Assembly (NCBI GenBank): GCA_964469525.1
Contig: CAYXYU010000003.1
Location: 33,185-97,184, forward strand
From: an uncultured Rickettsiales bacterium
GTDB taxonomy: Bacteria > Pseudomonadota > Alphaproteobacteria > Rickettsiales > SXRF01
Direction of reading: 5' to 3'
DNA: 64,000 bases
Both the position numbers and the translations under genes were made by a program. Positions 25,567 to 64,000 of this stretch are shown one piece after another. The first letter of the stretch is position 1, and each line of letters opens with the position of its first letter. A model generated the notes under the pieces. The model did no database searches. It saw nothing but the letters and a program-made list of their open reading frames with translations, and had not been told where the DNA came from.

Positions 25567-25662
25567 CGTCATCACCCGAATCGGCGTAGCCGATTTCTAG
25601 GGTGATCCAGTTTGAATATAAACCTGATGGCTTAGAATTCCTGCGGAATTCAGGCCGTGACA
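25567..25662. repeat. Inverted doublet of CGTC-tagged REP-like units (family I, doublet A)
   Basis: CGTC-ATCACCC-GAATCGGC-gta-GCCGATTTC-TA-GGGTGAT-CCAG, then a reverse degenerate copy at 25623-25662. Confidence 0.88.
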
Positions 25663-25673
25663 AAGGAGAGGAT

Positions 25674-25976
25674 ATGCGCTGGGAATGTATCGCAGTCTAT
25701 ATTATGACGAACATGCGAAATGGCACGCTCTATATCGGCGTCACCTCGAATCTCATCCGCAGAATCTTCGAACATAAAAGCAATGCCGTCGATGGCTTCA
25801 CCAAGAAGTACGGTCTGCACACGCTGGTGTATTACGAGCTCTTCGACAGCATGGAAGCCGCTATCCATCGGGAAAAGCGCCTCAAAAAATATACCCGGGA
25901 AGCCAAGCTGGCGCTTATTGAGAACATGAATCCCGAATGGAAGGATCTGTATGACTCCATAGCCGTCATGGCCTGA
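25674..25976 (+). CDS. Small stand-alone GIY-YIG nuclease (100 aa)
   Basis: AVYIMTN...TLYIGVTSNLIRRIFEH...YYE...AIHREKRLK...NPEWKDL; RBS aaaggagagg before the ATG at 25674. Confidence 0.9.
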   Translation: MRWECIAVYIMTNMRNGTLYIGVTSNLIRRIFEHKSNAVDGFTKKYGLHTLVYYELFDSMEAAIHREKRLKKYTREAKLALIENMNPEWKDLYDSIAVMA

Positions 25977-25978
25977 CT

Positions 25979-26076
25979 CGTCATCCCCTGAATTTGCGCA
26001 GCAAATTCTAAGGGGATCCAGTAGCAAAGAAAGGCTGGATGGCCTTAGAATCGCTTTCGCGATTCAGGCCATGACG
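25979..26076. repeat. Inverted doublet of CGTC-tagged REP-like units (family I, doublet B)
   Basis: CGTC-ATCCCCT-GAATTTGC-gca-GCAAATTC-TA-AGGGGAT-CCAG, a 13-nt spacer, then CTGG-ATGGCCT-TA-GAATCGC-tttc-GCGATTC-AGGCCAT-GACG. Confidence 0.92.
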
Positions 26077-28499: not shown

Positions 28500-28595
28500 C
28501 CCTCTCCCATGCAATGGGAGAGGGTTAGGGTGAGGGCACTTCGTCCCTTAAAGTAAGCGCCCTCACCCCGGCCCTCTCCCGCAAGCGGGAGAGGG
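28500..28595. repeat. CCCTCTCCC/GGGAGAGGG compound palindrome in the fliD leader
   Basis: CCCTCTCCCAT-gca-ATGGGAGAGGG ... CCCTCTCCCGC-aa-GCGGGAGAGGG; relatives at 41552 and 62567. Confidence 0.85.
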
Positions 28596-37112: not shown

Positions 37113-37188
<76 letters not shown>

Positions 37189-41551: not shown

Positions 41552-41575
41552 CCCTCTCCCGCAGGCGGGAGAGGG
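41552..41575. repeat. CCCTCTCCC palindrome between convergent astB and SDR genes
   Basis: CCCTCTCCCGC-ag-GCGGGAGAGGG. Confidence 0.8.
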
Positions 41576-48931: not shown

Positions 48932-49030
48932 CGTCATCACCCGAATCGCGTCAGCGATTCTAGGGTGATCCAGTTTTTATATAGACTGGATTCCCCTAGA
49001 ATTTTGCTGTGCAAAATTCGGGGAATGACG
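48932..49030. repeat. Family I CGTC REP-like doublet C
   Basis: CGTC-ATCACCC-GAATCGC-gtca-GCGATTC-TA-GGGTGAT-CCAG, a 12-nt spacer, then CTGG-ATTCCCC-TA-GAATTTTGC-tgt-GCAAAATTC-GGGGAAT-GACG. Confidence 0.92.
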
Positions 49031-49626: not shown

Positions 49627-49723
49627 GCTTTCCCGCGTTTTTCTACGTTTCCTATCGGTTTCCGAGCGTTTTTAACACGTTTCGGTAGTGTTTGTATGCG
49701 TTTTACATCGTTTAAACACGCTT
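49627..49723. repeat. Helically phased (C)GTTT tract, 10 units, about 10.4-bp period
   Basis: The G preceding each T-run lies at 49627, 637, 647, 658, 668, 679, 690, 700, 710 and 720. Confidence 0.8.
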
Positions 49724-49882
49724 GTAAGACACGGGAATAGAGGCAATCCAGAACCTTACCCTTATTCACGCGGCAAAAGACGTGACATTCTGTGACATGC
49801 CTTCAATACTTTCCTCCACCAGATTCCCTGCACCACCTCATTTTAAAGCCAGCGTGAATGGCCGGGAAGGGGGGATTTAGCC

Positions 49883-49987
49883 CGTCATCGCCCGAACTGC
49901 CAAAGGCAATTCTAGGACGATCCAACTTCAACGGATGGAGATGGATTCCCCTAGAATTTTTGCTCGCGCAAAAATTCGGGGATGACG
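49883..49987. repeat. Family I CGTC REP-like doublet D
   Basis: CGTC-ATCGCCC-GAACTGCC-aaa-GGCAATTC-TA-GGACGAT-CCAA ... TGG-ATTCCCC-TA-GAATTTTTGC-tcgc-GCAAAAATTC-GGGGAT-GACG. Confidence 0.88.
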
Positions 49988-59125: not shown

Positions 59126-59153
59126 TGTCATCCCCGCGAAGGCGGGGATGACA
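59126..59153. repeat. TGTC-tagged palindrome (family III)
   Basis: TGTCATCCCCGC-gaag-GCGGGGATGACA. Confidence 0.85.
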
Positions 59154-59163
59154 AAGGAAGAGT

Positions 59164-59685
59164 ATGAAAGACGAAGAATTCCAGAAGTTGCTGGCTGCTC
59201 CAGTGCCGCTGATTTTAATTCTGTCGCCGATCAAGTTGATGGCGAGGGCTGTATGTCATCTGGCGGTGTCTTTGGGTGTTTTGGCATTTGGCTGGTTTCT
59301 TTTTGATCGTTTTGGACATGGTATCGGTTGGATTATTGTCGTTCTACCATGTATTCTTTTTGGTGTGGCAGGGTTGGTTGGGCTTATACAAACAATGGGA
59401 ATTTTGCTAACGATACTGCATTATGACAAAGCCAAGGTTGTTCTTAATGATATAGGTTTCTCAGTGTATGATACACGGCTAATCGAGAAAAAATATAAAT
59501 GGCAAGACGTTTCGGATTTTGTTGCAGGTGGTATGGCAAGCGTAGTATTCGACGATAGCGTAAGTTACGATCCTGACCGGCCGGATGATAGTTCAAGAGT
59601 TGTACAGGATGTCGCCGGTTTGAGCGCTAAGGAACTTACCAGGCTTCTTAACCATTGGCGCACCCGTGCATTACAGAGCGGATAA
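59164..59685 (+). CDS. Hypothetical membrane protein (2 TM helices plus a soluble domain)
   Basis: AT-rich ORF inside the cox cluster; KVVLNDIGF...YKWQDV resembles a bacterial PH-like domain. Confidence 0.6.
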   Translation: MKDEEFQKLLAAPVPLILILSPIKLMARAVCHLAVSLGVLAFGWFLFDRFGHGIGWIIVVLPCILFGVAGLVGLIQTMGILLTILHYDKAKVVLNDIGFSVYDTRLIEKKYKWQDVSDFVAGGMASVVFDDSVSYDPDRPDDSSRVVQDVAGLSAKELTRLLNHWRTRALQSG

Positions 59686-62560: not shown

Positions 62561-62566
62561 AACATT

Positions 62567-62659
62567 CCCTCCCCCGTAGGGAAGGGTTAGGGTGGGGGCA
62601 TCGTTGGCGAGGACTGAGCAAATTATGCCCCCCTCCCAGCCTCCCGGCGGGGAGAGGGG
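62567..62659. repeat. CCCTCCCC-type compound palindrome overlapping the DUF983 start
   Basis: ccctccccc-gta-gggaagggttagggtgggggca ... tgcccccctcccagcctccc...ggggagaggg. Confidence 0.7.
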
Positions 62660-62981
62660 AATATTCCGCTGCCCTCGCTGCGGACAAGGCAAGCTCTATA
62701 AAGGCCTGCTTGAGATGAACGATAGCTGCAGCGCCTGCGGCCTGGCGCTCTCGGCGCGCGAAGCCGGCGACGGCCCGGCCTTCTTTGCCATACTGTTCAT
62801 AGGCGCGATCAGCGCCATCGGCGCTGCCGTGGTCGAAATCAAGTACGCACCGCCCTTCTGGCTGCATGCCGTCATCTGGATACCGTTTGTGATTATCGGT
62901 ACAGTGCTGGGACTCCGCTTCCTAAAAGCGGCGCTGGTAGCAGCGCAGTACCGGGTGCGGCGGGAGGATTTTACGAAGTAA
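62625..62981 (+). CDS. DUF983 family protein
   Basis: RCPRCGQGKLY...CSACG...GDGPAFF...PPFWLH...KAALVAAQY. Confidence 0.88.
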   Translation: MPPSQPPGGERGIFRCPRCGQGKLYKGLLEMNDSCSACGLALSAREAGDGPAFFAILFIGAISAIGAAVVEIKYAPPFWLHAVIWIPFVIIGTVLGLRFLKAALVAAQYRVRREDFTK

Positions 62982-62982
62982 A

Positions 62983-63010
62983 TGTCATTCCCGCGAAGGC
63001 GGGAATCCAG
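62983..63010 (+). repeat. Family III REP-like unit, forward
   Basis: TGTC-ATTCCCGC-gaag-GCGGGAAT-CCAG. Confidence 0.9.
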
Positions 63011-63013
63011 TCC

Positions 63014-63835
63014 TTATGAGAGACGAAAATTTAATTCCCGCAGAGCCATTGTTTCCATCAGACTTTCTTCTGAATCAAACAATGAAAAAGCATTTAAATT
63101 GTAATCATCAAGTATTTTTAGAACTTTTGTGCGCTCGTTCCATGGAATAACAAATTTCCAGCAAATATCTTGATTGGATTTATTGCGACAAAGAACTTCA
63201 TCATGAGAAACAAAGTACCATTCTTTGTTTTTAAAGAGAGTGCAAATTGTATAACTGCCCTGTTGAAGAAAATGTCTTCTATGCCTCTTTGAGTAGGGTC
63301 CCCAACCAGTAATACGCGCTTCATTTCCTGACCATGTTTTGCCCCCTTCCCAATATTCACAAAATACATATATGGCGACCTTATCTTCTTTGGGTGATAC
63401 GGGGGATCTAAATGCAAAATACGCTGCTACGTAAGGAGATTTTGACCAGTCAAGTAATGGGGAAGGAAATCCGTGATGCCGCAGATAAATCAGATAACTA
63501 TATGCATCATGTCCCCATTTTTTCGTAACATATCCATCAGAATCAGCAGCTTGTTTATGGAACTCCTCTCGTGTAGGTAAGTGCCATCTCTTTCCGGTAA
63601 ATTCTTCTATTTGATCCTGCACCCTTGAAATCAAACCGTAATATCCAGAGAATGAGACATCCTGACTTGTATTTCGTTCGAGGGTTGTAATTAATGGAAA
63701 ATTGGCATTACTGTGTCCACGAAACAGTAAATTCGACACTGATTTCTTTTCCTCGGCAAGTTTATTACGCTGTGTGCGAAGTTCTGCCAACTTCGTCTCG
63801 AATTCTTCCCAATTCTTACAATCTATTTGTTCCAA
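63014..63835 (-). CDS. FRG domain protein
   Basis: LLFRGH...TTLER and LRHHGFPSPLLDWSKSPYVAAYFA; TTG start after GGAG; markedly AT-rich. Confidence 0.9.
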   Translation of the reverse strand: MEQIDCKNWEEFETKLAELRTQRNKLAEEKKSVSNLLFRGHSNANFPLITTLERNTSQDVSFSGYYGLISRVQDQIEEFTGKRWHLPTREEFHKQAADSDGYVTKKWGHDAYSYLIYLRHHGFPSPLLDWSKSPYVAAYFAFRSPVSPKEDKVAIYVFCEYWEGGKTWSGNEARITGWGPYSKRHRRHFLQQGSYTICTLFKNKEWYFVSHDEVLCRNKSNQDICWKFVIPWNERTKVLKILDDYNLNAFSLFDSEESLMETMALRELNFRLS

Positions 63836-63859
63836 TCTGGTTCTCCAGATTATGATGTA

Positions 63860-63923
63860 CTGGATTCCCGCCTGCGCGGGAATGACGAAGGAACCCGGAC
63901 CCCGCAACAAGTGCGGGGATGAG
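63860..63923 (-). repeat. Two family III REP-like units, reverse
   Basis: CTGG-ATTCCCGC-ctgc-GCGGGAAT-GACG (63860-63887) and ccgg-acccc-gc-aacaagt-gc-ggggat-gagg (63895-63923). Confidence 0.85.
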
Positions 63924-63925
63924 GT

Positions 63926-64000
63926 TTACGCCTTCTTCTTCCCCTTGCCGTTGATCTTGGTCACCTTGCCCTGCTGTTCGGTAATGGCGTGCATGGCGGC
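63926..64000 (-). CDS. 3' end of an unidentified gene (truncated by the window)
   Basis: Reads AAMHAITEQQGKVTKINGKGKKKA-stop. Confidence 0.45.
   Translation of the reverse strand, partial: AAMHAITEQQGKVTKINGKGKKKA

Follow-up and report, generated by a model that had tools for sequence, protein, structure and literature searches.

Repetitive extragenic palindromic (REP) sequences are among the most abundant non-coding repeats of bacteria. Here we describe a locus in a 64-kb stretch of DNA from an uncultured Rickettsiales bacterium (contig CAYXYU010000003.1; the whole 64,000 nucleotides are referred to below as the window) in which two REP units stand on either side of a complete gene for an FRG-domain protein. 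The closest described repeats are the CGTC-1 REPs of Di Nocera, De Gregorio and Rocco (2013), which are defined by an unpaired CGTC or TGTC tag, a stem of 8 bp with AT as its first two positions, a loop of 4 nt and a tail of 3 conserved base pairs (PMC3733652). CGTC REPs predominate in Alphaproteobacteria and are extragenic, occurring mostly as head-to-head (HH) dimers placed 3' of open reading frames (ORFs) between convergent or co-directional genes; they are without a dedicated or known transposase, and insertion of DNA between the partners of a REP dimer has been noted (PMC3733652). The CGTC-1 family has been equated with the dRS3 repeat of Neisseria (PMC3733652), a 20-bp sequence of the form ATTCCC-N8-GGGAAT whose Nf1 subtype, ATTCCCgcCTgcgcGGGAAT, is targeted by the Nf/MDA phages (PMC3046118, PMC3898611). 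In the dRS3/NIME system, hundreds of copies lie in arrays with RS elements (PMC3898611, PMC3046118, PMC1797815), and a proposal by Bentley et al. is that incoming DNA delivers genes with flanking repeats into the dRS3 arrays of the chromosome (PMC1797815). The REP-bounded FRG cassette described below is a variant of these noted and proposed arrangements (PMC3733652, PMC1797815).

The locus also resembles two other kinds of element. REPINs and REPtrons likewise use an inverted REP pair as a unit and enclose a single gene; in that case, however, the gene is a RAYT (a Y1/HUH transposase) and the repeats carry a GTAG tag, whereas here the gene is FRG and the tag is CGTC. Mobile insertion cassettes and cargo-carrying miniature inverted-repeat transposable elements (MITEs) share with it a passenger gene that stands between short inverted repeats with no transposase alongside, but they have a target-site duplication and ends derived from an insertion sequence (IS), whereas the locus here has no such duplication and its ends are a genome-wide REP with no known cognate IS.

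Two CGTC-1 units around an FRG gene

The left-hand unit, REP1 (62983–63010, plus strand), reads TGTC-ATTCCCGC-GAAG-GCGGGAAT-CCAG, and the right-hand unit, REP2 (63860–63887), reads CTGG-ATTCCCGC-CTGC-GCGGGAAT-GACG on the plus strand, or CGTC-ATTCCCGC-GCAG-GCGGGAAT-CCAG on the minus strand. Each is made up of a tetranucleotide tag (TGTC at 62983–62986 in REP1; GACG at 63884–63887, which is CGTC on the minus strand, in REP2), an 8-bp stem, a 4-nt loop and the 3-nt tail CCA followed by G. The units are predicted to fold into 8-bp hairpins (-8.9 and -8.7 kcal/mol, z about -4) and, with their tags pointing outward, they form an HH dimer with a 'spacer' of 849 nt; a repeat search recorded the pair as a 28-nt inverted repeat (62984–63011 and 63859–63886) with 96% complementarity and 847 nt between its arms. 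The core of REP2 (63864–63883) is identical to the Neisseria dRS3/Nf1 consensus at 20 of 20 positions, and the reverse complement of REP1 at 19 of 20, one loop base differing. We conclude that REP1 and REP2 are CGTC-tagged REPs of family CGTC-1, since every defining feature of the unit and of the dimer is matched. The repeat family itself is thus one that has already been described (CGTC-1/dRS3). A literature text search with the literal REP sequence gave no match, and an Rfam scan of the window matched nothing besides the lone tRNA gene at 37113–37185.

Units of this kind are scarce in the window. The motif ATTCCCGC-N4-GCGGGAAT, with up to two mismatches allowed, occurs three times in 64 kb against an expectation of 0.06, and none of 100 shuffles gave three matches. 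REP1 and REP2 are the only canonical short units, the third match being a variant at 59130; CGTC-1 REPs are a multi-copy family dispersed in the genome. Outside the window, the 20-mer was found in more than 120 IMG/VR contigs with GC contents from 0.34 to 0.72 and is therefore a widespread unit. Its flanks there are almost always xxGG...GAC, most commonly CTGG/CTAG...GAC(G/A), and among close REP pairs in 120 IMG/VR loci the HH arrangement was the commonest (75 RF against 45 FR).

Between the two units lies the FRG-domain coding sequence (63014–63835, minus strand), which comprises 822 nt and 273 aa with a TTG start and a TAA stop codon. The complement of the stop codon (TTA, 63014–63016) is separated from the end of REP1 by 3 nt (63011–63013); on the other side of REP1, 1 nt away, is the stop codon (62979–62981) of the left-hand neighbour, a DUF983 gene (62625–62981, plus strand), and REP1 fills the gap between the two convergent stops. 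At the other end of the FRG gene, the TTG start (63835) is separated from REP2, upstream of it, by a 24-nt leader (63836–63859, minus strand) that contains a Shine-Dalgarno sequence, GGAG, at 63846–63843; REP2 itself follows the 3' end of maeB. The start codon is backed by an alignment in which 39 of 39 homologues begin MxxID..WExFE at the same position. An earlier note on this DNA had reported these REP positions and the distances of 3 nt and 24 nt, all of which were borne out. Whereas the usual spacer of a CGTC-1 dimer is 20–100 bp, the dimer here encloses a complete gene, and a second genome carries the same cargo (see below).

The segment also differs from its surroundings in composition. 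GC content is approximately 0.37–0.42 within the REP pair and approximately 0.60 outside it; the ORF stands at about 0.38, compared with 0.586 for the window, and its GC content at third codon positions (GC3), 0.34, is the lowest among 61 window ORFs. A GC-rich repeat around an interior of lower GC is also what is seen in the dRS3-RS-dRS3 arrangement of Neisseria, although the window is without arrays or RS families and its host, at 59% GC, is not Neisseria.

The encoded protein matches Pfam FRG (PF08867) with E=3e-19 (70 bits against a cut-off of 25) and, over nearly its full length (residues 2–256), the PADLOC model PDC-S15, a candidate single-gene defence family, with E=7.9e-34. The earlier description of an AT-rich FRG gene and defence candidate was accordingly upheld. 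A family scan returned 3,446 proteins at E≤0.001, all of about 270 aa and from many phyla; in 185,579 species genomes it found just 574 genomic relatives, and homologous FRG genes almost always have a lower GC content than the DNA around them. In its near full-length match to the hidden Markov model, its stand-alone, AT-rich character and its patchy distribution the gene is like other members of PDC-S15/Pfam FRG; it differs in that it is a predicted defence gene sitting among housekeeping genes, outside any defence island. On sequence grounds its product is a candidate stand-alone anti-phage effector. Frg has been assigned to the ADP-ribosyltransferase (ART) superfamily as a possible NADase effector, and on that assignment, for which PMC9503650 is the sole source, the product may consume NAD+. 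Its AlphaFold2 model is confident (predicted local distance difference test score, pLDDT, 87.4); sequence and profile searches with the protein gave no PDB match, and there was no NCBIfam match. Residues R39, T50/T51 and R54 are invariant.

Recurrence of the repeats and the DUF983–maeB slot

The best long-contig homologue of the FRG gene, at locus L001, is 59% identical and comes from a distant alphaproteobacterium, whose CcmC has no database match above 54%. It is found at another locus, with ccmC on one side and an SDR gene on the other, and is flanked by the same HH REP pair; no third unit occurs in the 9 kb. Downstream of the gene, the unit is identical to REP1 at 27 of 27 positions and again stands 3 nt past the FRG stop codon. 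In a further homologue, L168 (60% identical), a variant REP unit lies directly past the stop. In three homologues, then, the FRG stop has a REP no more than 3 nt away, whereas only about 12% of REP–ORF-end juxtapositions in the background fall within 5 nt of a stop codon. In another close homologue, L002 (3472–4308, 57% identical), the FRG gene fits so tightly between ubiE and ubiB that start and stop codons overlap and intergenic DNA is absent, and it stays AT-rich (GC 0.40 against 0.57).

Flanking repeats of other kinds are found around more distant FRG genes. In an exploratory, post hoc comparison with small counts, 9 of 119 non-redundant FRG loci had inverted repeats within 250 nt on both sides, whereas among 409 neighbouring genes only 3 did (Fisher p=1.4e-4); where both intergenic gaps were at least 80 nt, the counts were 5/49 and 1/110 (p=0.011). 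Flanking inverted repeats are thus about ten times as frequent at FRG genes as at neighbouring genes, and more than 90% of FRG genes have no flanking repeats. The repeat-bracketed loci are L036 (the same as L151), L029, L012, L162, L063, L024/L033 and L073, and their repeats differ from host to host among Acidobacteria, Burkholderiales and Deltaproteobacteria. An acidobacterial locus, L036 (4901–5908), has a 46-nt perfect inverted pair 55 and 56 nt from the gene ends, L029 has arms of about 100 nt and L012 nested pairs; also seen are arrays of heptamers and a single 50-nt direct repeat. When seven loci with inverted or direct repeats were re-checked, six carried the repeats solely as the FRG-flanking pair within the locus, and L063 had additional mirrored copies. 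None of 13 FRG loci on viral contigs had flanking repeats.

The arrangement DUF983–REP–FRG–REP is found unchanged in five other metagenome assemblies of the organism, which come from five sequencing runs, and the FRG gene has the same orientation in all six assemblies. The source samples include runs SRR9016293, SRR9016295, SRR27710304 and SRR27710306. The short-read assemblies of the organism all break off on the maeB side of FRG. Two of the five (L003 and L004), for which the sequence was scanned, end 2–3 nt after REP2; in the other three, represented by gene calls only (among them L308 and L309), the contigs end with the FRG ORF. The ending of contigs at REP2 suggests that further copies of the REP with its flank exist in that genome or community.

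In the nearest relatives, L005–L007, the DUF983 protein is 72–75% identical and the order ctaE–DUF983–X–maeB is kept, X standing for a variable slot. In L005 (6317–7005) the slot holds a PIN (VapC)/MazE-type toxin–antitoxin pair together with M48 and LemA genes, and in L006 and L007 (L006, 6321–6728) it holds a 135-aa proline-rich ORF without an assigned function; neither FRG nor REPs are present in the slot in any of the three. As different small genes are found at this point in relatives, the DUF983–maeB gap is a small variable slot, or hot spot, for accessory genes. It lies within gene content that is otherwise alphaproteobacterial (the cta operon, DUF983 and maeB), and the ctaE–DUF983 synteny is conserved. 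The maeB gene, which encodes an NADP-malic enzyme, is represented by its 3' end (63926–64000, minus strand), being cut by the end of the window, and its C-terminus matches the maeB of L005 and L006. Directly 3' of the maeB stop, outside the REP pair, is a GC-rich hairpin, CCCCGCA-N5-TGCGGGG (63900–63918, minus strand), which is probably the native 3' hairpin of maeB.

Other repeats in the window

The window contains four further REP doublets in HH arrangement. One pair of doublets (25568–25661 and 25980–26075) brackets a 100-aa ORF (25674–25976), and the other pair (48933–49029 and 49884–49986) lies on either side of the housekeeping gene pgsA. These doublets share their GTCAT/ATCCAG termini with the FRG-flanking units and have spacers of 12–15 nt, but they consist of long bulged hairpins of 41–46 nt and are a subtype different from the short units; the predicted fold of the doublets is a strong composite hairpin (-20 to -31 kcal/mol, z -4.6 to -8.4). 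The earlier note had placed the FRG gene in the position of the short spacer seen in the other doublets: the HH geometry supports that description, whereas the doublets it was compared with belong to this long-stem subtype. The 100-aa ORF has a GIY-YIG nuclease domain (Pfam E=3e-14) and lies in an AT-rich patch, the second doublet beginning 3 nt past its stop codon. In the approximately 250 nt of non-coding DNA between pgsA and its REP doublet (49627–49880), (A)CGTTT motifs recur every 10–11 nt or so with an iteron-like periodicity.

The variant motif match forms part of a palindrome, GTCAT-CCCCGC-GAAG-GCGGGG-ATGAC (59127–59152; -15.5 kcal/mol), that carries tags at both ends and is situated between ctaD and an AT-rich ORF at 59164; this ORF, of 173 aa and without a Pfam match, stands in the ctaD–ctaB interval. 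It was considered as a second recent REP-associated insert and rejected as such, as a homologue occupies the same place in the relative L006 (26% identity, E=4e-14). L006 also has two degenerate REP-like hairpins at the position matching the palindrome, and the ORF and REP site (59127–59685 in the window, 2526–3151 in L006) are therefore both old.

Among the nine gene-length REP pairs listed from elsewhere, the FRG cassette excluded, seven are head-to-tail, and in eight the GC content inside the pair differs from that outside by no more than 0.04. A head-to-head pair around AT-rich DNA is therefore not the default pattern for these repeats.

A second palindromic family, CCCTCTCCC-N-GGGAGAGGG and its relatives, is present in the window at 28501–28595, 41552–41575 and 62561–62662, the last including the ctaE–DUF983 spacer. 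A copy of the same family at L001 (6020–6075) is apparently in frame within the 5' part of the SDR gene.

Origin of the REP–FRG–REP arrangement

The HH geometry, the exclusivity of the two units in 64 kb, the recurrence at L001 and the unit at L168 count for a reading in which an HH CGTC-1 dimer has the FRG ORF as its spacer and the segment was placed or exchanged by REP-guided recombination, to which we assign a probability of roughly 45%. The contrast with other gene-length REP pairs, the constancy of the arrangement across assemblies, the other cargo held by the slot in relatives, the excess of repeats around FRG genes in several phyla and the match to a defence family count for it as well, and the reading comes near to the proposal of Bentley et al. 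(PMC1797815) and agrees with the remark on DNA between dimer partners (PMC3733652). According to this reading the segment between the two REPs would be exchanged or inserted through recombination guided by the 27–28-nt units, which would serve either as portable arms of short homology or as the sites on which a putative REP-specific recombinase acts, and a promoterless single gene would thereby be set into the DUF983–maeB accessory slot. After landing, the REPs would be dispensable and could decay or be lost, which would account for homologues with one REP or none. Transcription of the FRG gene would probably come by read-through from maeB: no sigma-70 promoter was matched on the minus strand, and the 24-nt leader is too short for one. 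The REP1 hairpin may provide a common 3'-end structure for the convergent DUF983 and FRG transcripts. These findings suggest that the repeat pair helps such genes to move. It is a more tentative proposal, and one that we hold to be somewhat doubtful, that HH REP dimers and host palindromic pairs in general serve single defence genes without a promoter as vehicles or docking sites, with REP–FRG–REP as a non-autonomous cargo element whose 27-nt repeat serves as portable recombination arms between distant bacteria; if this were true, it would explain the excess of inverted repeats around FRG genes in several phyla.

Several lines of evidence weigh against REP-guided recombination. The earlier note had suggested that REP doublets act as capture sites or as the ends of composite elements, and while the recurrence at L001 and the variable slot speak for this, other signs of such a process are missing. 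No empty HH doublet was found at DUF983–maeB, the comparison downstream of DUF983 that had been proposed for this purpose returning relatives with other genes and no REPs; this is because the databases searched contain no relative whose DUF983 is more than 75% identical. Likewise none was found at the L001 locus, where no CcmC relative exceeds 54%, and no short-type HH doublet able to serve as a landing site is present in the window. No gene for a transposase, RAYT (Y1_Tnp), IS110/Piv-like recombinase or integrase was seen among the approximately 30 window ORFs scanned, and no target-site duplication is apparent at the outer flanks of either the window cassette (AAAT|TGTC..GACG|AAGG) or the L001 cassette (CCAC|GTCAT..ATGAC|GGAG). 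The upstream unit at L001 is degenerate, with a 2-nt indel. Among the six closest FRG genes three have no REP (L002, L169 and L170, 54–60% identical) and one, L168, has a single unit, and the REP was absent from all of about 160 more distant FRG loci (80 genome and 80 metagenome). Of the flanks looked for around FRG homologues, both units were seen at L001 and one, in variant form, at L168, and the presence of the gene in relatives without REPs, which the earlier note had regarded as telling against capture, was partly confirmed. The flanking-repeat comparison carries the limits given with it above, and the ART/NADase assignment was not reproduced when the FRG model was searched against the PDB with Foldseek (no match at E<0.001).

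A possible, if less likely, explanation for the arrangement is that the FRG gene arrived by an unrelated route and that CGTC-1 REPs later settled independently in both of the new gaps, the mirror arrangement being incidental. The sites of REP1 and REP2 are those that the family prefers, 3' of ORFs in convergent or unidirectional gaps (PMC3733652); REP doublets bracket the housekeeping gene pgsA as well; and CGTC-1-type units in IMG/VR are found beside ordinary phage genes in every orientation. L168 and L170 are orthologues (67% identical) at the same hutH locus, one with a REP and one without, and REP presence therefore changes independently of the gene. Near-perfect REPs around genes that have diverged to 59% identity would also fit young repeats. 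Nevertheless, independent settlement does not readily explain why the pair is HH in both REP-flanked cases (1/16 under random orientation) when other gene-length pairs are mostly head-to-tail, why the only short units in the 64 kb of the window and in the 9 kb of L001 are those flanking FRG, or why a REP abuts the FRG stop codon in three homologues. Moreover, FRG genes still show an excess of flanking repeats, roughly tenfold, when intergenic lengths are matched. The repeats could alternatively have supplied the landing site without being carried along, if a resident HH doublet was broken at its centre and FRG DNA was joined to the ends by illegitimate repair. REP dimers form hairpins or cruciforms that stall replication (Di Nocera et al., PMC3733652), the window doublets are strong composite hairpins, and the flanking inverted repeats in other phyla are host-specific, as if supplied by the host. 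We consider this improbable, as two random captures are unlikely both to have been trimmed to the ORF plus 3 nt at one end and 15–24 nt at the other, and the FRG-flanking units are of the short type whereas the resident doublets of the window are of the long type.

Two described modes of integration do not fit the locus as they stand. Simple one-site integration into a REP, the mode of the Nf phages, gives flanking units in direct orientation and predicts directly oriented hybrid units, whereas the units here are inverted and the orientation CTGG..GAC is universal in other genomes. An integron gene cassette was rejected, as the termini are GTCAT/ATGAC and CCAG/CTGG rather than attC GTTRRRY and the scanned ORFs include no integrase. 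The dRS3 repeats of Neisseria are acted on by an IS110/Piv-type recombinase; neither such a gene nor an Nf phage was seen among the approximately 30 ORFs scanned. That the FRG protein is itself the enzyme servicing CGTC REPs, and the pair its own ends, would fit an architecture like that of REPtrons and TIRtrons, a repeat family without a dedicated transposase (PMC3733652) and the other long terminal inverted repeats that some FRG homologues bear. We regard this as very improbable: with 574 relatives in 185,579 species genomes, FRG is far rarer than CGTC REPs, which are widespread in Alphaproteobacteria; the FRG gene of Bradyrhizobium (L081) has no flanking repeat, although the genus is known for CGTC REPs, and nor do more than 90% of FRG genes; Frg is placed in the ART superfamily and not among nucleases (PMC9503650); and the family matches a defence-island candidate model. 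Least credible of all is an invertible cassette, in which the inverted pair would flip the gene and make its expression phase-variable. A promoterless gene that has inverted repeats around it and transcribed neighbours to either side would suit such a switch, but the orientation is the same in 6/6 assemblies, there is no invertase nearby, and read-through transcription would be available in either orientation.

No enzyme is known for CGTC-type REPs, and there is no agreement on their function; a recurring gene cassette in the place of the dimer spacer would provide a testable case of REPs bringing about gene flow. REP-mediated gene flow has been raised for the dRS3 arrays of Neisseria, and no demonstrated case was found in the literature searched. 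If REPs do no more than settle in newly formed intergenic DNA, this is an ordinary small slot for accessory genes; if REP-guided recombination did place the FRG gene, REP pairs would constitute an integrase-free route by which single-gene defence candidates enter housekeeping loci.

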